From positions 172,531 to 236,530 of the forward strand of contig CAWHDZ010000015.1 of assembly GCA_963828255.1 (NCBI GenBank): a stretch of DNA of 64,000 bases, read 5' to 3'. The position numbers and the translations under genes are program-made. Shown one piece after another: positions 3,914-27,448 of the stretch. Position 1 is the first letter of the stretch. Every line of letters starts with the position of its first letter. The DNA comes from an uncultured delta proteobacterium. Lineage in GTDB: Bacteria > Myxococcota > Myxococcia > Myxococcales > Anaeromyxobacteraceae. The notes beneath the pieces are model-generated. The model saw only the letters and a list, made by a program, of their open reading frames with translations. It ran no database searches and was not told the origin of the DNA.

Positions 3914-6130
3914 GTGGACATGGTGTCGAGCGCCGTCGCAGCGGCCGCCGTGCTGCTGGCGATCGTCATGGCTGTCGGCCACGTGGTCAAGCGGCGCCGC
4001 AGGATGGCGCACGACGCCGTGGTGCTCAAGGACAAGCAGGAGAAGAACCTCCACATCCCGCGGTCGCTCCACCCCGTCATCGACACGGACATCTGCATCG
4101 GATCCCTCTCCTGCCTGAAGGCCTGCCCGGAGGGGGACATCCTGGGCATCCAGAAAGGCACGGCGACCCTGGTCCACGCCGACCACTGCATCGGTCACGG
4201 CCGGTGCGCCGCGGAGTGCCCCGTCCAGGCCATCCGCCTCGTGATGGGAACCCACGAGCGAGGCGTGGACCTCCCCGAGGTGGACGAGTACTTCGAGTCG
4301 AGCCGGCCCGGGGTCCACGTGGTGGGTGAACTGGGCGGGATGGGGCTCCTGCGCAACGCCGTCCGGCAGGGGCTGCACGCCGCCAAGCGGCTCGACGGAA
4401 TCCTCCCCAAGGGGGGCGGCGGCAAGGCGGTGGACGTGGTCATCGTCGGCGCCGGCGCGGCCGGCCTCGCCACCGCGTGCGCGCTCCACGAGGCGGGGCG
4501 GAGCTACAGGCTCCTCGAGCAGGGGACCTGGGGCGGCACGATGTACCACTACCCGCGCCGGAAGATCGTCATGACCGAGCCCGCCACCATCCCGGGCTTC
4601 GGCAAGATCGGAAAGTCCATCATCAGCAAGGAGGAGCTGCTCGAGACCTGGGGCAAGGCCATCGAGAAGATCCAGGTGAAGGTCGACGAGGGGATCCAGG
4701 TCACCGGCATCGACGGCGAGGACGGCGCCTTCGCGGTCCACACCACGAAGGGGATCATCGACGCACGCAAGGTCGTGCTCGCCTGCGGCCGCCGCGGCAC
4801 GCCGAGGAAGATGGGGGTCCCGGGCGAGGAGCTCCAGAAGGTCACCTACGGCTTCACCGACGCCGAGCAGTACGGCGGGCGGCGGGTCCTCGTGGTGGGC
4901 GGAGGCGACTCGGCCCTCGAGGCGGCCATCCAGATCGCCGAGCTGGGCACCTCCGAGGTGGCGCTCTCCTACCGCGGCGCCGAGCTCGGACGGGCCCGGC
5001 AGGCCAACCGGGACAAGCTGACCGCCCTCTCCGAGGCCGGGCAGCTCACGCTGCTCCTGCCCTCGCAGATCAAGTACGTCACCGAGACCGAGGTCCGACT
5101 CGAATGGGACGGGCGCGAGATGCGCCTGCCCAACGACGACATCATCGTCAACATCGGCGGCGACCCGCCCGACGGCTTCCTCAAGAAGGCCGGCGTGGAG
5201 ATGCGCCGCTACAAGGGGGAGCAGCTCGGGGCCAAGACCGGCGAGGACTACGTCAGCGAGGAGGAGATGAAGATGCGCCGGAGGCTGCGGCGCACGCTGG
5301 CGCTCTACGCCTGCCTGGGAGCCACCATCGTGGCCTACCTGGCCTACAAGGGCTGGGGCTACTACCAGCTCACCACCATGGCCCGGCTTCGGTCGCCGAT
5401 GCACGGCGCCTTCAAGTCGGCGGGGCCGTGGGGGCACGGGGTGGGGATCGTGGCCACGGTCTTCATGCTCTCGAACTTCCTCTACCCGGTGCGCAAGCGC
5501 ACCCGGTCCCTGACCGGCCTGGGGGACATCCGCGACTGGCTCAACTTCCACGTCTTCGTGGGGTTCATGAGCCCGCTCGTCATCGCGTTCCACGCCGCGT
5601 TCCAGTCGAACAACGTGCTCGCCACCGCGACCGCCATCGCGCTCGGGATCGTGGTGGGCACCGGGCTCATCGGCCGCTTCATCTACGGGCTCGTTCCCTC
5701 CGTGGACGGCCACGCCGAGGAGCTCGAGCTCATCTCCGGCCGGTTCGAGCGGCTCCGGTCCACCGTTGAGCCGATGCTCGCCGGGGCCCGGGAGAGGAAC
5801 CGGCTCGACAAGCTGGTGGCCTCGGCGACGGCCCAGGTTCCGAAGAGCTCTCTCATCGTCGCCCTCCTGCGGGAGCCGCTGTCCGGGCTGCGCTTCCGGT
5901 TTCGCCTCCTGCGGGTGCGGTTCCTCTTCACCGGGACGTCGCAGTACACTCGATTTCGCATCTCGGTGCTGCGCCTGCGCCGGCTCCGTTTCCAGATCGC
6001 CTTTTACGGCGGCCTGCGAAACCTGCTACGAAACTGGCGTGTCATGCACGCCTCCCTGGCGGTCTTCCTCGTCTTCGTCATGACCGTGCACATCGGCGTC
6101 TCGCTCTACCTGGGCTACGGACTGAAATGA
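3914..6130 (+). CDS. membrane-bound ferredoxin / FAD-NAD(P)H oxidoreductase / cytochrome b-like fusion protein
   Basis: N-terminal TM followed by KRRRR; CIGSLSCLKACP and CIGHGRCAAECP Fe-S motifs; VIVGAGAAG (FAD); VLVVGGGDSA...SYRG (NAD(P)H); C-terminal TM helices with two H-x13-H pairs. Confidence 0.85.
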   Translation: MDMVSSAVAAAAVLLAIVMAVGHVVKRRRRMAHDAVVLKDKQEKNLHIPRSLHPVIDTDICIGSLSCLKACPEGDILGIQKGTATLVHADHCIGHGRCAAECPVQAIRLVMGTHERGVDLPEVDEYFESSRPGVHVVGELGGMGLLRNAVRQGLHAAKRLDGILPKGGGGKAVDVVIVGAGAAGLATACALHEAGRSYRLLEQGTWGGTMYHYPRRKIVMTEPATIPGFGKIGKSIISKEELLETWGKAIEKIQVKVDEGIQVTGIDGEDGAFAVHTTKGIIDARKVVLACGRRGTPRKMGVPGEELQKVTYGFTDAEQYGGRRVLVVGGGDSALEAAIQIAELGTSEVALSYRGAELGRARQANRDKLTALSEAGQLTLLLPSQIKYVTETEVRLEWDGREMRLPNDDIIVNIGGDPPDGFLKKAGVEMRRYKGEQLGAKTGEDYVSEEEMKMRRRLRRTLALYACLGATIVAYLAYKGWGYYQLTTMARLRSPMHGAFKSAGPWGHGVGIVATVFMLSNFLYPVRKRTRSLTGLGDIRDWLNFHVFVGFMSPLVIAFHAAFQSNNVLATATAIALGIVVGTGLIGRFIYGLVPSVDGHAEELELISGRFERLRSTVEPMLAGARERNRLDKLVASATAQVPKSSLIVALLREPLSGLRFRFRLLRVRFLFTGTSQYTRFRISVLRLRRLRFQIAFYGGLRNLLRNWRVMHASLAVFLVFVMTVHIGVSLYLGYGLK

Positions 6131-7947
6131 CCAATCGACGAACCTGCACGGGTACCCGCCAGATCCTCGCCCCGCTGGCCGTCGCCGTCGCGCTGCTCGC
6201 CCTCCCGGCGCGGGCCGACCTCATCTCCCCCGGCGAGCTCTCCCGCGCCCACGAGAAGCTGGAGGGGCTACAGAACTGCACCAAGTGCCACCCGGCCGGG
6301 AAGCAGTTCTCCGCCGAGAAGTGCCTGGAGTGCCACAAGGAGCTTCGCCCCAGCCTCTCTTCGGGGAAGGGGCTCCACGGACGGGCCTCCGAGAAGAAGT
6401 GCGAAGCCTGCCACCACGAGCACCACGGCAAGGACTTCCCGCAGATCGACTGGGGCGAGGCCGGGCAGAAGGCCTTCGACCACGCCAGGACCGGGTACCC
6501 CCTGGTCGGCAAGCACGCCAAGGCGAAGTGCGAGACCTGCCACGACCCCCGCCGCGTCACCGATCCCGCCGTGAAGGAGGTCCTGGCGAAGGGGCGCAAG
6601 AGCCTCCTCGGCGCGCCGGCAACCTGCGCCGGGTGCCACTTCGACGAGCACCGGACCCAGCTCGGGAACGACTGCCAGAAGTGCCACGACCCCAACGCCT
6701 GGAAGCCCGCCACCAAGGGGTTCGACCACGCGTTGACCAAGTACCCGCTCAACGGGCTGCACGCCAAGGTCCCCTGCGCCAAGTGCCACGTTCCCCTGGT
6801 CGATCCGGAGGGCAAGCACACCTTCCCCCAGGCCGTCTCGGTCACCTACGCGAAGTACAAGCCGCTGCCCTTCGCCGCCTGCACCGACTGCCACAAGGAC
6901 CCGCACCAGAACCGCTTCGGCGCGCTCTGCATCACCTGCCACGTCGTGGAGGGCTGGAAGGTCATGAAGGTGGGGCAGGGCGACAAGATCGCCTTCCACG
7001 AGAAGGCCCGCTACCAGCTCCGCGGCGCCCACCAGCAGGTGGAGTGCAAGTTCTGCCACGGTCCCTTCGAGGGGCAGGCGAAGGCGAGGTACAAGGACCT
7101 GGCGTTCAAGGCCTGCACCGACTGCCACCAGGACGCCCACCTCGGCCAGCTGGGGAAGGCCGGGCAGCCCCCGGCGGCCTGCGATCGCTGCCACGTCGTG
7201 CAGGGCTGGGTGCCGGTGCGCTTCGAGCTGGCCGAGCACCAGAAGACCAAGTACCCGCTCGAGGGCGCCCACGTGGCCGTGGCCTGCGATCGCTGCCACG
7301 TGAAGACCAACAAGCTCGCCGAAAAGGCCCCGGCCGCGATGCGCGCCGAGATGAAGCGGCAGCGACGCCCGGTGAAGGTGAGCGAGTTCACCATGGAGAA
7401 GAAGGTGGACGGGAAGAAGTGCACCTCCTGCCACCGCGACGTCCACCAGGCGCAGTTCGAGAAGCGCATGGCGGTGGAGGGGTGCACGGCCTGCCATGAC
7501 CAGGCCAGCTTCACGAAGACCAGGTTCGACCACGCCCGGGACACCAAGTTCCGGCTCGACGGAAAGCACGGCAAGACGGCCTGCGCCTCCTGCCACGCCG
7601 CCGCGACCGGAAAGGACGGGAAGCCCTACGTGAAGTACGCCGGTGCGCCCACGGCCTGCGCGAAGTGCCACGCCGACCGGCACGCCGCCCAGTTCGCGGT
7701 GAAGAAGGTGACCCAGTGCGCCTCCTGCCACGGCGTCGAGGATTGGAAGAAGCTCAAGTTCGTCCACGCCGAGCCGTTCACGACCTACACGCTGACAGGC
7801 AAGCACGCCAAGGTGACCTGCGAGAAGTGCCACCCGCCGGTCAAGATCGGCACCCTCGAGATCAAGCGGTACAAGCCGGTGTCGCGCGACTGCCAGGGAT
7901 GCCACGCCGACTTCCACAAGGGCGCCTTCCGGGGGTACGAGCCGTGA
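6127..7947 (+). CDS. periplasmic multiheme cytochrome c, 20 CxxCH motifs
   Basis: Sec signal peptide (...ALPARA); 20 CxxCH counted; repeated FDH..T.[YF]PL.G.H units; ATGA overlap with upstream gene. Confidence 0.95.
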   Translation: MTNRRTCTGTRQILAPLAVAVALLALPARADLISPGELSRAHEKLEGLQNCTKCHPAGKQFSAEKCLECHKELRPSLSSGKGLHGRASEKKCEACHHEHHGKDFPQIDWGEAGQKAFDHARTGYPLVGKHAKAKCETCHDPRRVTDPAVKEVLAKGRKSLLGAPATCAGCHFDEHRTQLGNDCQKCHDPNAWKPATKGFDHALTKYPLNGLHAKVPCAKCHVPLVDPEGKHTFPQAVSVTYAKYKPLPFAACTDCHKDPHQNRFGALCITCHVVEGWKVMKVGQGDKIAFHEKARYQLRGAHQQVECKFCHGPFEGQAKARYKDLAFKACTDCHQDAHLGQLGKAGQPPAACDRCHVVQGWVPVRFELAEHQKTKYPLEGAHVAVACDRCHVKTNKLAEKAPAAMRAEMKRQRRPVKVSEFTMEKKVDGKKCTSCHRDVHQAQFEKRMAVEGCTACHDQASFTKTRFDHARDTKFRLDGKHGKTACASCHAAATGKDGKPYVKYAGAPTACAKCHADRHAAQFAVKKVTQCASCHGVEDWKKLKFVHAEPFTTYTLTGKHAKVTCEKCHPPVKIGTLEIKRYKPVSRDCQGCHADFHKGAFRGYEP

Positions 7948-8792
7948 TCCACCTCGCCGCAGCCGCCGCGCTGTTCCTGGCCGCCGCACCACAGGCTCCC
8001 CAGGCGCACGCCCCCGCCGACACCAAGTGCTCGGCCTGCCACACGCCCGAGGGGTGGGGGGACGTGAAGTTCGTCCACGAGCGGACCGGGTTCCCGCTCA
8101 CCGGGCAGCACGCCCAGGTGGCCTGCCGCAAGTGCCACGTGGTGGACTTCAAGCAGCCGCTGCCCCGAAGCTGCTCGGCCTGCCACCGCGACGTCCACGG
8201 CGGCAACGCGGGCGTCCAGTGCGCCACCTGCCACGACACCGAGAGCTGGAAGTCCCGCTTCGACGCGGACGCCCACCGGCGCACCAACTTTCCGCTGCAG
8301 GGGCGCCACGCGCTGCTCCCCTGCGAGCAGTGCCACGGCGACAGGCGCGATCGCTCCTTCGCACGTCCCACCGTTCCGTGCGCGGATTGCCACCAGGCCG
8401 ACCTCTCCAACGCGGCGGCGAAGGGGGTGGACCACTCGGGGTTCGGGAACACGTGCCTGGGCTGCCACGGCTTCTGGCGCTGGAGCCCGGCCACCTTCTC
8501 GGGGCACGGGGCCTGCTTCCCCATCGACTCGGGCAGGCACGCCGGAATTCCCTGCCTGAGCTGCCACGTCACGCTGCCCGTGCCGCTCGTCATCGGGTCC
8601 TGCACCAGCCAGCCTTCCCCGTCCTGCATCCAGTGCCACCCCTGCGCGTCGCACCCCCAGGTCCAGAGCTTCGTCTGCACCGACCAGGCCTGCTACGGAT
8701 GCCACTACAACGGGCAGGTCAACGAGGGCGGCGGGAACCTCCGGACCAGGCAGCTGCGGATCGGACCCACGCGGAGGACGGTGAAGCCATGA
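7944..8792 (+). CDS. multiheme cytochrome c, 10 CxxCH motifs
   Basis: GTGA overlap; Ala-rich signal peptide; 10 CxxCH counted plus 4 non-motif Cys. Confidence 0.93.
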   Translation: MIHLAAAAALFLAAAPQAPQAHAPADTKCSACHTPEGWGDVKFVHERTGFPLTGQHAQVACRKCHVVDFKQPLPRSCSACHRDVHGGNAGVQCATCHDTESWKSRFDADAHRRTNFPLQGRHALLPCEQCHGDRRDRSFARPTVPCADCHQADLSNAAAKGVDHSGFGNTCLGCHGFWRWSPATFSGHGACFPIDSGRHAGIPCLSCHVTLPVPLVIGSCTSQPSPSCIQCHPCASHPQVQSFVCTDQACYGCHYNGQVNEGGGNLRTRQLRIGPTRRTVKP

Positions 8793-10465
8793 GCGCGCTC
8801 CCCCTCCTGGCGTTGCTCCTCGCGGCGGGTTCGCCTGAGCAGGCGCAAGCCCCCGTCCCTCCGGCGCCGGCTGCCGTCGCGGCCCCCGTCGGCGCCCCGA
8901 CGGCGCCCGTCGCCCCGGTGGCCCGCCGTGTCGAGGGGAAGGTGACCTTCGCCACCGCCACCACCGTCTACCTCGACGCCGGCGCCCTGGAAGGGCTGAC
9001 CATCGGCCAGGTCATCCAGGTCACGCGCGCCGCCCAGCCCGTCGGTACATGTACGGTGCGTGAACTGGCCGACCACTCCTCCACCTGCACGGGGCAGGGG
9101 GTCCGCGTCGGGGATCGTTTCACGGCGGACACGACGGTGCCCGGCGCGCCCGTGGTGGCCAAGATGGCCCCCGTCCCCACCGAGGACGAGCTGGACAGCC
9201 GCAACGCCATCCTGGTCGGGACCCCGGTGGCGCTGGTCGAGTCGAAGGCGAAGGCCCGCGACGTCGTGATCGGCCAGCTCCCCAGCATCCGGGGAGATCT
9301 GGGATACGCGGTCTGGCTCGCCAGCCCGTCGGGGCCGGGGGACTCGCAGCGAATGCAGCTCGACGTCCAGGTGAACGGACTCGACGCCTTCGCCGGGTTC
9401 AAGTTCTTCGCCGACGCGCGCCTTTTACAATGGACCCAGCGGGACGAGACGTACGTGCCGGGATCCGCGACCCAGTTGCTGGTCTACGACCTGGAGCTCT
9501 CCCAGCGCGACCCGAAGAGGAGCTGGAGCGCCGCCTTCGGACGGGTCATGCCCTGGTTCGCCCCCGGCTCGACGGTCTTCGACGGCGCCCAGGGCGGGCT
9601 GCGGTTCGGCCGGACCGAGGTCGGCGTCTTCGGGGGCGTGGTCCCGGATCCCTACACCACCGAGCCGACCCTCAACCGGTACACCGGCGGCGTCTACGTC
9701 AACTTCGAGGCCCCCCTGGGATCCACGCTGCTCTCCGGCAGCGCGCGCGGCGCGGTGGTGCAGAACCCCGCCGTGCTCCGCCACTACGAGGGGGAGCTCC
9801 TGCTGAACTACTGGGCGGGCGGCGTCTTCAGCGCCTCCGGCAACCTGCGCATGGGGTTCGGCGACGTTCACGCGCCGTCCTACATCGACGCGGCCCGCCT
9901 GGCGCTCAGCATCCGGCCCGTCCCCATCTTCTGGATCTCGGGCGGCTTCTCCTACTGGGGACTCGCGATGCCGAACGACGAGCCCATCGCCACCTACCCC
10001 GGTCCCTCCCGCCGGGCCGACGGCTCGATCGGCGTGGACGCGACCCCCTGGCTGCGCATCGCCGGCCTGGGAGGTTGGGTGGACGACCTGACGTCCGGCC
10101 TGTCCCACACCTACGTGGGGCCCGAGGTGACCTTCACGAAGGTGCTGGCCGGCCTCTCCTTCGGCTACCTGAAGGACCTGGGATGGGTGGAGGGGCAGAG
10201 CGCCTGGGGGCAGATCGGCTGGGCCCCCGCACCGGGAGCGCGACTCACCGGCCGGGCCTCCTGGTTCCAGACCACCCAGACCGTCGGCGGGGTGTCGAAC
10301 TCCGCGCCGGCGAACGACGCCGGCCTCACCCTGAACGGGACGGTCGGGCTGACCCGCTGGCTCTCGCTCCGGGCGTCGGTGATGGTGCGGGCCGGGATCG
10401 ACAACTTCGAGGCGTCGGTGCCATTCGGGACGGCGGCGAACGTGTTCCTCGTCGGCACCTACTGA
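8789..10465 (+). CDS. outer-membrane beta-barrel protein with N-terminal FlgT-C-like domain (putative cytochrome-associated porin)
   Basis: ATGA overlap; signal peptide; Pro/Ala linker; VYLDAGALEGLTIGQ motif; amphipathic aromatic-rich strands; ends NVFLVGTY (terminal aromatic beta-signal). Confidence 0.8.
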   Translation: MSALPLLALLLAAGSPEQAQAPVPPAPAAVAAPVGAPTAPVAPVARRVEGKVTFATATTVYLDAGALEGLTIGQVIQVTRAAQPVGTCTVRELADHSSTCTGQGVRVGDRFTADTTVPGAPVVAKMAPVPTEDELDSRNAILVGTPVALVESKAKARDVVIGQLPSIRGDLGYAVWLASPSGPGDSQRMQLDVQVNGLDAFAGFKFFADARLLQWTQRDETYVPGSATQLLVYDLELSQRDPKRSWSAAFGRVMPWFAPGSTVFDGAQGGLRFGRTEVGVFGGVVPDPYTTEPTLNRYTGGVYVNFEAPLGSTLLSGSARGAVVQNPAVLRHYEGELLLNYWAGGVFSASGNLRMGFGDVHAPSYIDAARLALSIRPVPIFWISGGFSYWGLAMPNDEPIATYPGPSRRADGSIGVDATPWLRIAGLGGWVDDLTSGLSHTYVGPEVTFTKVLAGLSFGYLKDLGWVEGQSAWGQIGWAPAPGARLTGRASWFQTTQTVGGVSNSAPANDAGLTLNGTVGLTRWLSLRASVMVRAGIDNFEASVPFGTAANVFLVGTY

Positions 10466-12092: not shown

Positions 12093-12761
12093 TCAGCGGG
12101 CCGGGGGGACCCCGGGGATTCCCGGGGGCGCGCCGCGCTGCCGCAGCTCGGCGATGGCGGCGCCGGCCTGGCCGGCGAAGCGCCCCGACTTGTCGGTGGC
12201 GATGACCTTGAGCCAGGCCTCCTCGGCGCGCTTCGTGTCCTTCAGGTCGTAGGCGAAGACGACGCCGATGTTCATGAGGCTCTGCATGTGGTTCGGATCG
12301 ATCTGGTTCGCCTTCTGGAAGTTGGCGAGCGCCTTGTCGTACTGCCCGAGGTCCCGGTACATGACCCCCTGATCGGTGAGGACGTCGGGGTTCTTGGGGT
12401 TCAGCTCCAGCGCCTTGCCGTAGGCGTCGATGGCGGCCTGCTGCTGCTTGGTGTCGAAGTAGTCGTTGCCGAGCGAGATCCAGGCCTGGACGTCCTTGGG
12501 GTTCTGGGCCACGAGTTGCTTCGCGATGGCGATCCGCTGGTCGACTCCGGCCCCGCCGCCCGGGACGTTGGGGGCGCCGACCATCCCGCCGGGAGGCATC
12601 CCGCCACCCGGAGGCATCGCCCCCGGGGGCATCGCGCCTGGCGGCGGCATGGTGGGTACCCCGCCTGCCGGCGGGGCAATTGGAGCGGCCGTGACCGGCT
12701 CGTTCTTCTTGCATCCGACCACTGCGAGAGCGACGGCGAGGGCGACGAGCGTTCGGTTCAA
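12093..12761 (-). CDS. TPR-repeat lipoprotein with Pro/Gly/Met-rich linker
   Basis: GGAGG SD plus TTG start; lipobox VVGC; MPPG repeats; three to four TPR motifs ([11 protein letters not shown]...[10 protein letters not shown]). Confidence 0.85.
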
Positions 12762-15320: not shown

Positions 15321-16061
15321 GTCCCCATCGATGCGATCTCCGACGAGCTCGTCCAGCGTCTCAAGGGCGATCTCGTCGAGAACCAGCGGAACAGCAAGAC
15401 CATCAACAACGTGCTCACCGCCCTCTCGGTCATGCTGAAGCGCGCGGCGGACTGGAAGGTCATCGATGCAATGCCCTGCCGGATCAAGCTCCTCAAGTAC
15501 GAGCGGACCGAGGTCTCGTTTTACGACTTCGCCGACTACGAGAAGCTCTTACAGGGCGCAGCGGCCCTCGATGTCCGCATCGAGCTGCTCGTGCTCCTGG
15601 GCGGAGGCGCGGGCCTGCGCCGTGGAGAGGCCATCGCAGTGGAGTGGAGCGACGTCGACCAGAAGCGGAGCGTCCTGCACGTGCAGCGCAGCGAGTGGGA
15701 CGGCCACGTGACCACGCCCAAGGGCGGCCGATCCCGGCGAGTGCCGATGACGGCTCGCCTGGCTGCCGCCCTCAAGGCCCATCGTCACCTCCGGGGCTCC
15801 CGAGTTCTCTGCCACGAGAATGGGGACGCCATCGGCAGGCAGGCCGTGCACGAGTGGATGGAGAAGGCCCAGCGACGGGCTGGCCTAAAGGTCACGGGCG
15901 CGTATCACATCCTCCGCCACACCTTCTGCTCGCACCTCGCGATGCAGGGCGCGACGGCGAAGGCCATCCGGCTGCTCGACCGGAGGCCGACCGGCGAATC
16001 CGTTGGAGACGGTTTGGAGACGGGCTCCGGGCCGGAGACGAAGTCGAGGGAAGTTCCGTAG
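15321..16061 (+). pseudogene. decayed tyrosine integrase (N-terminally truncated, internal deletion of the GH...Y box)
   Basis: KTINNVLT.L, GLRRGE, PKGGRSR, HILRHTFCSHLAMQGA then jumps directly to AIRLLD; no catalytic Tyr segment; abuts tRNA 3' end. Confidence 0.85.
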
Positions 16062-16066
16062 TTGAG

Positions 16067-16142
16067 TGGTGAGGCGCCCGGGAATCGAACCCGGAACCAC
16101 CGGCTTAAAAGGCCGATGCTCTGCCAGTTGAGCTAGCGCCTC
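16067..16142 (-). tRNA. tRNA-Lys (anticodon TTT)
   Basis: Reverse complement GAGGCGCTAGCTCAACTGGCAGAGCATCGGCCTTTTAAGCCGGTGGTTCCGGGTTCGATTCCCGGGCGCCTCACCA; 76 nt cloverleaf with CCA. Confidence 0.97.

Positions 16143-23992: not shown

Positions 23993-23996
<4 letters not shown>
23226..23996 (-). CDS. sdhB: succinate dehydrogenase/fumarate reductase iron-sulfur subunit
   Basis: [44 protein letters not shown] overlap with sdhA. Confidence 0.95.
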
Positions 23997-25909
<1,913 letters not shown>

Positions 25910-25920
25910 CCGTGTCACCT

Positions 25921-26628
25921 CTAGAGGCGGATCAGGCCGGTGACGACGCCGGCCGGAATGGTGAGATAGGCGATGGAGAGGAAGACGCCGACGAGAAGGG
26001 CGACCTTCATGATGGTCGGGGTCCAGAGCGGCTGCCGGAACCCGAGGGACTGCCACAGGGAGTAGAGCCCGTGGGACAGGTGGAACCCGAGGCCGACGAT
26101 GGAGGCCGAGTAGAAGATCACCTTGCCCCAGTTCCGGAAGGTGCCGACCAGGTTCTGGTAGGCCTCGCCCTCCACGAACCCGGAGTGGACGAAGGCGGCG
26201 CCCAGGGTGAGGTCGAGCAGGTGGAAGACCAGGAAGCCCAGCGTGAGCAGGCCGGTCCAGATCATGGTCTTCGAGGACGGGGTGGCCGGGTTGGCCAGCG
26301 GCACGCGGTAGGGCTGCGGGCGGGCCTCGCGCGAGCGCAGCCAGAGCTGGATGCCGGCCGTGGCGTGGAGGATGAGGGCCGCCAGCATGATGATGCGCGT
26401 GGGCCAGACGATGGCCTTGGTGTTCTGCAGGAACTGGGCGTAGGCGTTGAACTTCGCCGCGCCCTGGAACGCCTGCATGTTGCCGAGGAGGTGGCCGACG
26501 ACGAAGGTGAACAGGAGGATGCCGGTCACGGCGGAGACGAACTTCTTTCCGACCTGGCTCTGCCAGAAGACGGCGAGCCGGGAGACCTTGACCGGCGCTG
26601 CGGTGCTGGCGGTTGCGACGCTCATCAT
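25921..26628 (-). CDS. sdhC: succinate dehydrogenase cytochrome b558 subunit (single-subunit diheme anchor)
   Basis: [13 protein letters not shown]...GHLLGN, LH, FH, FHLSHG; about five TM helices. Confidence 0.92.
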
Positions 26629-26866
26629 CACCCCTCTGGGGCTGAAGGTGACACCGTCCTGGTCTCGATCCGCCGGGCGGCGGAGGTTCTCGGGCGCGAG
26701 CCGGGGCGATTGGGGCGGCGATTCTACGCATCGGCACCATGCGAAGGAAGAAGAATTGCGCCCAAATAAAGGGGACGAAATCGGTCCGTTTTCTGTGAGT
26801 GAATGACGCAGCGAATCACCCGGAATGCGCTCCACCTCCGCGGCCAGGAACGCTAGATTCGACGCG

Positions 26867-27448
26867 GTGAAGGACATCTGCGTCTTCTGCGGCTCGGCGA
26901 ACGGCCGGCGTCCCTCCTACGCCCGGGCGGCCCGCGCCTTCGGGGCGGCGCTGGCCGGAAAGGGGTACGGCCTCGTCTACGGGGGGGGCAGCATCGGTCT
27001 CATGGGCGTGGTGGCCGACGCCGCGATGGAGGGGGGCGCCTCGGCCGTCGGGGTGATCCCCCGCGCGCTCTTCCGGCGGGAGATCGCCCACCACGGTCTC
27101 ACCCGGCTGGAGGTGGTCCCTTCCATGCACGCCCGGAAGGCCCGGATGGCCCGGCTCTCCGACGCATTCGTGGCCCTGCCGGGCGGCATCGGCACGCTGG
27201 AGGAGCTCTTCGAGGTCCTGACCTGGGGTTACCTGGGGATCCACGCCAAGCCCACCGGCCTCCTCGACGTGGGCGGGTACTGGCGGCCGCTCATCCGCCT
27301 CCTCGACCACGCGGTGGAGGAGGGATTCCTGCGCCCCGCCCACCGGAAGCTGGTGGTGGTGGATCGAAGCCCGGCCCGCCTCCTCGAGCGGCTGGCAAGG
27401 CACCGGATCCCCCCATCGACCCGCTGGATCGACGAGAAGGAGACCTAG
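26867..27448 (+). CDS. LOG family nucleotide 5'-monophosphate nucleosidase (TIGR00730)
   Basis: [33 protein letters not shown]. Confidence 0.93.

Follow-up and report, generated by a model that had tools for sequence, protein, structure and literature searches.

Introduction

The closest described relatives of the system considered here are the porin-cytochrome clusters designated PCC3 by He et al. (2017), in which a porin is combined with multiheme cytochromes, both extracellular and periplasmic, and with a protein of the inner membrane (PMC5566968). The inner-membrane protein has about 300 residues and five helices, with an SGXXG motif on helix 4 and two WX3HX13H motifs, and for this motif class the role of a quinone-active cytochrome b has been proposed (PMC5566968). 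Fe(II) oxidisers are the organisms in which the PCC3 clusters were defined; later papers still describe these clusters as four genes, and one calls their function unverified. Here we analyse a four-gene cluster, A-D, at positions 3914-10465 of a 64,000-nucleotide (nt) stretch of DNA (the window; assembly GCA_963828255.1, contig CAWHDZ010000015.1, positions 172,531 to 236,530) from an uncultured member of the Anaeromyxobacteraceae (Myxococcota). In this cluster a membrane protein of the PCC3 type is fused to a ferredoxin-flavin module that is predicted to use NADPH.

We propose that A-D build one trans-envelope wire that carries electrons from cytoplasmic NADPH outward to acceptors at the cell surface, the likeliest of the readings considered, with odds that we judge about even. 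Characterised Gram-negative conduits pass electrons to or from the quinone pool, and a conduit with an NADPH site of its own would be a second route across both membranes. The NADPH input is the new part and is apparently unreported; a full-text search, with most subscription papers outside its reach, found no paper describing a flavoprotein in PCC3-type clusters.

Results

A conserved four-gene cluster

All four genes, and the features within them described below, lie on the forward (+) strand: A at 3914-6130 (738 residues, with a GTG start and GAGGAG 8 nt upstream), B at 6127-7947 (606 residues), C at 7944-8792 (282 residues) and D at 8789-10465 (558 residues). An earlier note on this DNA had described four genes joined by overlaps that encode an inner-membrane iron-sulphur (Fe-S)/flavin adenine dinucleotide (FAD)/NAD(P)H oxidoreductase with membrane histidines and its own pyridine-nucleotide site, a 20-heme and a 10-heme cytochrome, and a barrel. 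Each of its statements about the first three products is borne out by the motif and family evidence given below, and the junctions are as it described them, each an overlap of 4 nt (ATGA for A/B, GTGA for B/C, ATGA for C/D). Because the genes overlap in this way, we infer that they are co-transcribed. The GC content of the block is normal. A scan of the operon found no promoter-like site, and the single terminator-like match lies inside gene A on the - strand. Two metatranscriptomes hold short operon-like contigs (for X1, with roughly 94-98% identity over genes A-D), but the flanking genes are equally covered and a DNA origin is possible, so that these contigs are no evidence of expression.

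The cluster is conserved as a unit. Among 201 genomes of the class, A was found in 62 (threshold E 1e-60) and D in 62 (D profile, E 1e-8), with 61 common to both; these counts include the unpublished shared genome G082, and related genomes are not independent. The two exceptions, one with A only (G186) and one with D only (G191), are both fragmented assemblies. Presence is patchy inside genera (7/15 in one, 1/29 in another), and, among relatives with names, the nearest are Anaeromyxobacter-family genomes, with up to 98% identity in A. When 40 genome stretches were picked for their long contigs, A was fused in 37, truly split in two and broken in one; 34 of the 37 fused loci have a cytochrome of at least 8 hemes and 33 have the D barrel. 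Each of the four fused loci lacking D is a second copy, the genome in question having a full cluster as well. The joint conservation of the four families, which the earlier note had proposed to check by gene neighbourhood, is thus upheld. Misannotation or chance as the source of the cluster was ruled out by the heme-motif shuffles described below and by the co-occurrence of A and D. On these counts the four-gene system is real, conserved and, with the loci described next, cross-phylum.

A scan of metagenomes with one motif kept 80 of 127 loci, of which 79 passed the threshold: 47 are fused, 19 are split (18 truly so, one being a broken fusion) and 13 show the membrane protein only. All 13 without a flavoprotein sit on contigs of 5.1 kb or less. 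In the 18 true split loci the flavoprotein gene is still adjacent, in varying orders: upstream, downstream, divergent or past the barrel. The split form also occurs on a plasmid of Emticicia (Bacteroidota), the one record that plasmid searches found, where ccsA is accompanied by five genes: those for the membrane protein and the flavoprotein, for cytochromes of 23 and 40 hemes, and for a homolog of D (E 1.4e-8). More widely, a profile of the membrane domain picks out 76 genomes in a set of 251 from the phylum, and the D profile finds 1229 representatives at E 0.001.

Trees were built for the flavoprotein and for the membrane domain from 40 rows, comprising 26 of 84 fused forms (random, near-copies removed) and 14 split forms, with L083 and L142 omitted. 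Both are unrooted with some long branches, and that of the membrane domain is a quick one. In each, the fused forms lie to one side of one branch (99/95 for the flavoprotein, 99 for the membrane domain), and both trees show the same groups of split forms.

Several further arrangements were observed. In two split loci with divergent arms (L063:7494-15001 and L071:1-7622), one arm holds the flavoprotein and a 27-heme cytochrome; the other holds the membrane protein along with a B-like cytochrome and an unrelated, barrel-like protein whose last residue is Trp. Intact second copies of A with no barrel nearby (L054, L056, L080, L081) have as neighbours pirin, ABC/RND transporters, chemotaxis genes and nitrilase. 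Among L166-L185 the membrane domain is joined in some loci to an Fe-S domain alone; others have a second Fe-S/FAD fusion, which adjoins cytochromes of 33-36 hemes, or a fusion with cyclic-nucleotide (cNMP)-binding and Fe-S domains beside an FHA/7-heme/FAD protein. In a conductive-particle consortium, a Lentimicrobium genome encodes a porin together with cytochromes of 61 and 20 hemes, in a cluster that is not syntenic with known modules (PMC13013709) and may be a Bacteroidota form of the A-D cassette.

The predicted inner-membrane oxidoreductase A

Gene A encodes, in order, an anchor helix, an atypical ferredoxin, a permuted FAD-NADPH domain of the type of YpdA and ferredoxin-NADP+ reductase (FNR), and a five-helix membrane domain predicted to be a di-heme b. 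The anchor (residues 7-25, 3932-3988; hydropathy 2.54) is followed by a basic stretch, with 8 K/R in residues 24-48, which places the catalytic part, some 400 residues, in the cytoplasm by inference. The two-cluster ferredoxin domain (4070-4237; PF13237, E 9.5e-11) carries the motifs C-x2-S-x2-C-x3-CP and C-x2-H-x2-C-x3-CP, in which the second Cys is replaced by Ser at site 1 and by His at site 2. Across 99 distinct homologs the site 1 residue is Ser in 89, Cys in 7 and Thr in 2 (one could not be parsed), and the site 2 residue is His in 98. Substitutions of this kind hint at clusters with a raised potential, either [3Fe-4S] or mixed-ligand.

The FAD/NADPH-binding core (residues 173-435, 4430-5218) matches PF13738, the pyridine nucleotide-disulphide oxidoreductases, at E 3e-41 and YpdA at E 4e-26, and resembles YpdA, FNR of the thioredoxin reductase (TrxR) type and TrxR itself in sequence. 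In fold it aligns with YpdA (Z 21.5, root-mean-square deviation (rmsd) 5.2, 263 residues aligned) and with Bacillus subtilis FNR (Z 17.5, rmsd 5.7, 249 aligned). The CxxC of thioredoxin reductases is absent from the flavin segment in 102 of 102 homologs, which rules out that identity for A, and A scores 140 bits on TIGR04018 (YpdA/Bdr) against a cut-off of 339.9. The signature GxGx[DN]xA followed by [YH]R and a basic residue is found in 98 of 102 homolog segments, so that the nucleotide site is predicted to be of the NADPH type.

The order of the flavin domain is unusual. Pfam and NCBIfam family models end about 20-50 positions early on this core, and the split flavoprotein homologs stop some 20 residues past the NADPH domain. 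The C-terminal FAD motif of TrxR-fold enzymes (GD-type, here GE) appears to lie before the first Rossmann motif, at 4259-4408. This segment resembles the corresponding motif of lipoamide and glutathione reductases weakly (E 0.19-0.47) and has no Pfam match of its own in the window's A; in a homolog it matches positions 258-291 of the 291 in PF07992 (E 0.033). A diverse profile of the segment, from 24 sequences, picks out a motif of this kind in a different flavoprotein encoded by the genome (E 4e-4), and a tight profile has no match in the genome. None of these tests is strong by itself; taken together they speak for a circular permutation of the FAD domain. In two fused homologs of about 960 residues (L178:4007-6901 and L179:5960-8848) there is an insertion of roughly 150-200 residues within the NADPH domain.

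The membrane domain (residues 455-738, 5276-6130) has five modelled helices, at residues 449-484, 505-529, 539-562, 568-593 and 675-732, and two W-x3-H-x13-H motifs, W542/H546/H560 and W708/H712/H726. The four histidines, H546 (5549-5551), H560 (5591-5593), H712 (6047-6049) and H726 (6089-6091), are the predicted heme ligands, and the positive-inside rule would have H546 and H712 face the cytoplasm and H560 and H726 the periplasm. Among 122 distinct homologs both motifs are present in 119, and TGxxG, which in A begins at T583 with Thr in place of the Ser of SGXXG, in 120. PF01794 gave a weak match in 10 of 11 aligned members, with E 6e-5 at best and, for the first member, 20 bits where the cut-off is 28. 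A sequence search of the PDB with the membrane-domain profile gave chance matches only, and the matches in whole-model fold searches of A all come from its flavin domain. ESM Atlas searches gave unnamed clusters only.

The multiheme cytochromes and the predicted barrel

B and C both begin with signal-peptide-like sequences and carry 20 and 10 CxxCH motifs; in 5000 residue shuffles the means were 0.18 and 0.14 and the maximum 3. B, predicted to be a periplasmic wire, has 44 His, and the His counts of B and C should suffice for bis-His ligation of every heme. C has no internal Met and no evident lipoprotein Cys. Since B and C form one in-frame open reading frame (ORF) of 29-30 hemes in eight loci (L012, L013, L045, L049, L059, L064, L116, L156), they probably act as a single chain. 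No relative of B was found in the PDB at E 0.001. Membership of the MtrA family was considered and rejected, with scores on TIGR03508 (MtrA/DmsE decaheme) of 43 bits for B and 37 for C against a cut-off of 192.

Many relatives of the cluster have a further cytochrome of 7-26 hemes between C and D, or one of 22-41 hemes beside it; the operon in the window has no evident surface lipoprotein cytochrome. Elsewhere in the genome (G000), 41 ORFs carry at least 4 CxxCH, some in overlapping frames, and there are two blocks of giant multiheme ORFs on contigs other than that of the operon, C7:208485-244718 (37, 49, 46 and 25 motifs) and C27:170974-188940 (42 and 25). Most of these giant cytochromes are rich in Thr, Gly and Ala and several have lipoprotein-like starts; they could be the surface partners of the conduit.

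D (8789-10465) is predicted to be an outer-membrane β-barrel. Its model has a small N-terminal β domain, in which C88 and C100 are invariant, a helix and 22 barrel strands (pLDDT 72.7, pTM 0.60), and hydropathy alternation between its faces was as high in only 1 of 2000 shuffles. The barrel fold given in the earlier note is supported by this model; the terminal aromatic residue that it remarked on is present (Tyr) but is not typical of the family, in which 62 of 134 members end in F, Y or W and 54 in Leu. D has no Pfam or NCBIfam match, none of 44 D homologs has an MtrB-type Pfam match, and a PDB search with the D profile gave no noteworthy relative. The fold matches listed are all membrane barrels and none is specific (TM 0.41 or less).

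Surroundings of the operon

The A-D block is flanked on one side by secDF-type genes and on the other by a class-V aminotransferase gene in the opposite orientation. Two genes from the cluster and on the other strand, at 12093-12761 (-), is a tetratricopeptide repeat (TPR) protein with a lipoprotein-like start, which scores 43.7 bits on the CcmH/CycH TPR model (cut-off 42) and is a possible heme-maturation helper. Farther off in the window are a short ORF of the phage-integrase family that ends beside tRNA-Lys (15411-16142), likely an old integration site; genes for a succinate dehydrogenase/fumarate reductase flavoprotein and membrane subunit (23993-26877, -); a low-GC region (52000-58000) with tRNA-Ile and tRNA-Ala (54570-54748), probably an rRNA operon; and a DDE transposase (59280-60524, -).

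Discussion

How might these four proteins work together? In the wire that we propose, NADPH would donate hydride to the FAD of A, and the electrons would then pass singly to the two non-standard Fe-S clusters, from these to an inner heme b held by H546 and H712, and on to an outer heme b held by H560 and H726. B and C would form one 30-heme chain spanning the periplasm, with the end of C seated in the D barrel, where it would reduce humics, Fe(III) or Mn oxides, or a surface cytochrome whose gene lies outside the cluster. Such a path would need no quinone. Behind this scheme stand, from sequence, the domains and motifs, the numbers of hemes and the conservation, and, from structure prediction, the barrel and five helices; heme b in A, the binding of C to D, the direction of flow and the independence from quinone are parts of the proposal itself. 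In its favour are the shared occurrence of A and D, the flavoprotein that stays adjacent in split loci of differing gene order, the split groups that reappear in both trees, the single ORF for B and C in eight loci, the NADPH-type site without CxxC, the coupling of a cytosolic reductase to an outside acceptor in ferric reductase domain proteins (PMC12525009) and, in Sideroxydans, a likely relative of the flavoprotein beside a PCC3 cluster (see below). The outward electrons would help to discharge the inside-negative membrane, as in NADPH oxidase, and for this reason we see the conduit as serving redox disposal or surface reduction at the expense of membrane potential, rather than energy-conserving respiration.

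Four alternatives have to be weighed, and several of the observations given here in their favour weigh against the proposed wire, as does the low confidence of the ferredoxin part of the structure model of A. The first, which we consider unlikely, is that the di-heme domain trades electrons with quinone, so that the flavoprotein would be an NAD(P)H:quinone entry or a side branch and the wire would be fed or drained via quinol. The quinone-active role proposed by He et al. for this motif class is consistent with it, and ubiquinone co-purifies with MsrQ, a protein of the ferric reductase fold superfamily, although this quinone was judged a likely acceptor and unable to donate (PMC12525009). Some relatives also lack an adjacent flavoprotein. 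Of 20 loci picked by hand, most of them distant, 10 show a fusion of the membrane domain to an Fe-S domain and no pyridine-nucleotide domain that could be detected over about 10-13 kb, and four of these 10 adjoin a 30-heme cytochrome; the second of the two PCC3 clusters in Sideroxydans has an HD protein and an aldolase as its neighbours, and no flavoprotein. Against a quinone junction, each of the 20 loci has either an Fe-S domain encoded in one ORF with the membrane domain or a flavoprotein domain that shares or adjoins that ORF. The input module can be exchanged, yet in these 20 loci it is always an Fe-S or flavin unit.

A second alternative, to our minds improbable, is that NADPH charges the 30 hemes as a periplasmic supply or store of reductant for repair, detoxification or iron mobilisation within the envelope, with D a plugged transporter or secretion pore. 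The best fold matches of D are indeed 22-strand plugged TonB-dependent transporters (BtuB, Z 15.5, rmsd 5.5, 361 aligned), and their alignments extend across the N-terminal domain, which may be a plug. The lack of an evident surface lipoprotein cytochrome in the operon points the same way, as do the four orphan copies of fused A, which have no barrel in the stretch fetched and, in three cases, no cytochrome. The Z-scores of D are generic, however, with MtrB also among its matches (rank 35, Z 12.2, rmsd 7.7); many relatives add large cytochromes, as described above, and D almost never occurs without A.

FNR-type flavoproteins are reversible, and the same chain could in principle run inward, with reduced minerals, cathodes or partner cells reducing NADP+. 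That PCC3 was defined in Fe(II) oxidisers is in keeping with such uptake. We nevertheless weight outward flow well above inward and regard uptake as quite improbable, because inward transfer to NADP+ would oppose both the redox potential, being uphill from most Fe(II) couples, and the membrane potential. Sideroxydans, which has the PCC3 clusters Slit_0867-0870 and Slit_1446-1449, provides evidence on both sides. The first of these clusters is adjoined by Slit_0866 (PMC12016527 supplement), five peptides of which match, by eye, motifs of A or its split homologs in order at about 109-116, 218-231, 287-293, 299-309 and 426-433; Slit_0866 is therefore likely to be a relative of the flavoprotein of A. 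It is higher in late magnetite than in late Fe-citrate cultures (difference 2.35, q 0.018; 2.55, q 0.0027; only 4 unique peptides; PMC12016527), a rise that in an Fe(II) oxidiser could fit inward flow. Conversely, compared with thiosulfate, Fe(II)-citrate gives lower values for the genes Slit_0867-0870 (log2 -1.2 to -2.7; PMC8788666 supplement), and their proteins are largely undetected in the proteome. The full-text search, again with most subscription papers outside its reach, gave no main-text mention of Slit_0866.

The last alternative, that A is a YpdA-like reductase of thiol-disulfides or small molecules that borrows a membrane domain and is unrelated to the cytochromes, takes support from its closest solved relative, the bacillithiol disulfide reductase YpdA, but is very improbable given its NCBIfam YpdA score of 140 (cut-off 340) and the attached ferredoxin and tight linkage to cytochromes and barrel, which point to one-electron chemistry.

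The outward wire from NADPH may have a wider bearing. We suggest tentatively, with the balance leaning slightly the other way, that PCC3-type conduits were never quinone-fed but form a widespread, cross-phylum, NOX-like class in which a permuted ferredoxin-NADP reductase wires cytoplasmic NADPH to the outside of Gram-negative cells, the flavoprotein being an overlooked fifth subunit that is fused in Myxococcota. If so, PCC3 genes, now taken as candidate iron oxidases, would be reread in genomes, and a compact four-gene module would link cell reductant to electrodes. Fused A removes the choice of donor partner, and Sideroxydans ES-1 is a cultured host whose split form is already in proteomes.

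Comparison with known systems

Conduits of the MtrCAB/MtoAB and Geobacter Pcc types also combine a barrel and multiheme cytochromes in one cluster; they draw on the quinone pool, and B, C and D have no family-level match to them. The two-gene Pcc clusters of Anaeromyxobacter, which have a 12-heme cytochrome and no outer cytochrome (PMC4245776), are different from A-D.

For the flavin module of A the nearest structures are YpdA (Bdr) and the TrxR-type FNRs, which like A have FAD and NADPH domains and no CxxC. A shares the TrxR-type FNR fold, with its domain order permuted, and differs from both in its membrane anchor and in its fusion to a membrane domain and an atypical ferredoxin. By analogy, the best mechanistic precedent for A is the ferric reductase domain superfamily (NOX, STEAP, MsrQ with Fre), in which bis-His heme pairs are fed by a cytosolic NAD(P)H flavoenzyme and reduce an outside acceptor (PMC12525009). 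The two His pairs of A, 14 residues apart in 119 of 122 homologs, correspond to this trait. Members of that superfamily have six helices, whereas A has five and a separate N-terminal anchor; A also uses a TrxR-fold flavoenzyme with ferredoxin, and its predicted acceptor is a 30-heme chain with an outer-membrane barrel.

Among the clusters of He et al., PCC4 and those termed 'MHC + IMP + redox protein' share this membrane motif and also contain redox or Fe-S proteins of a kind that is not specified. PCC4 has 4-, 5- and 10-heme cytochromes, and the latter clusters mostly lack a porin. The redox genes of PCC4 may overlap the module of A. Neither Anaeromyxobacter nor any name in Myxococc- is mentioned in the main text or the text part (30,038 characters) of the supplements of that study.

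The suggestion in the earlier note that similar clusters might have been flagged before proved right, in that the membrane domain of A fits the PCC3/PCC4 motif definition (PMC5566968). Residues 455-738 supply the five helices and about 300 residues of the PCC3 membrane protein, as a fused domain, and contain both WX3HX13H motifs, with Thr for Ser in TGxxG; D has 22 modelled strands where PCC3 barrels have 22 or more. The periplasmic cytochromes of PCC3 are repeat-built, with 21-27 hemes, against 20 in the 606 residues of B. Those of Sideroxydans are like B in having about 600 residues and 20-21 hemes, and the one published peptide of Slit_1447 shows, by eye, the repeat type of B. PCC3 has an extracellular multiheme cytochrome besides; the second cytochrome here is C, which has 10 hemes, is B-like and can be fused to B. 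D, at 558 residues, differs from PCC3 barrels of 744 and 862 residues with SPOR or TPR labels, and the host belongs to Myxococcota rather than Proteobacteria. We conclude that the four-gene system is PCC3-like, because the membrane protein and barrel agree, even though the porin sizes differ; the type proteins of Sideroxydans and Leptothrix were compared by lengths, labels and peptides only. What sets the system apart is the ferredoxin/FAD/NADPH module fused to its membrane protein; PCC3, by contrast, appears in print as a set of four genes that is presumed to connect to quinone.

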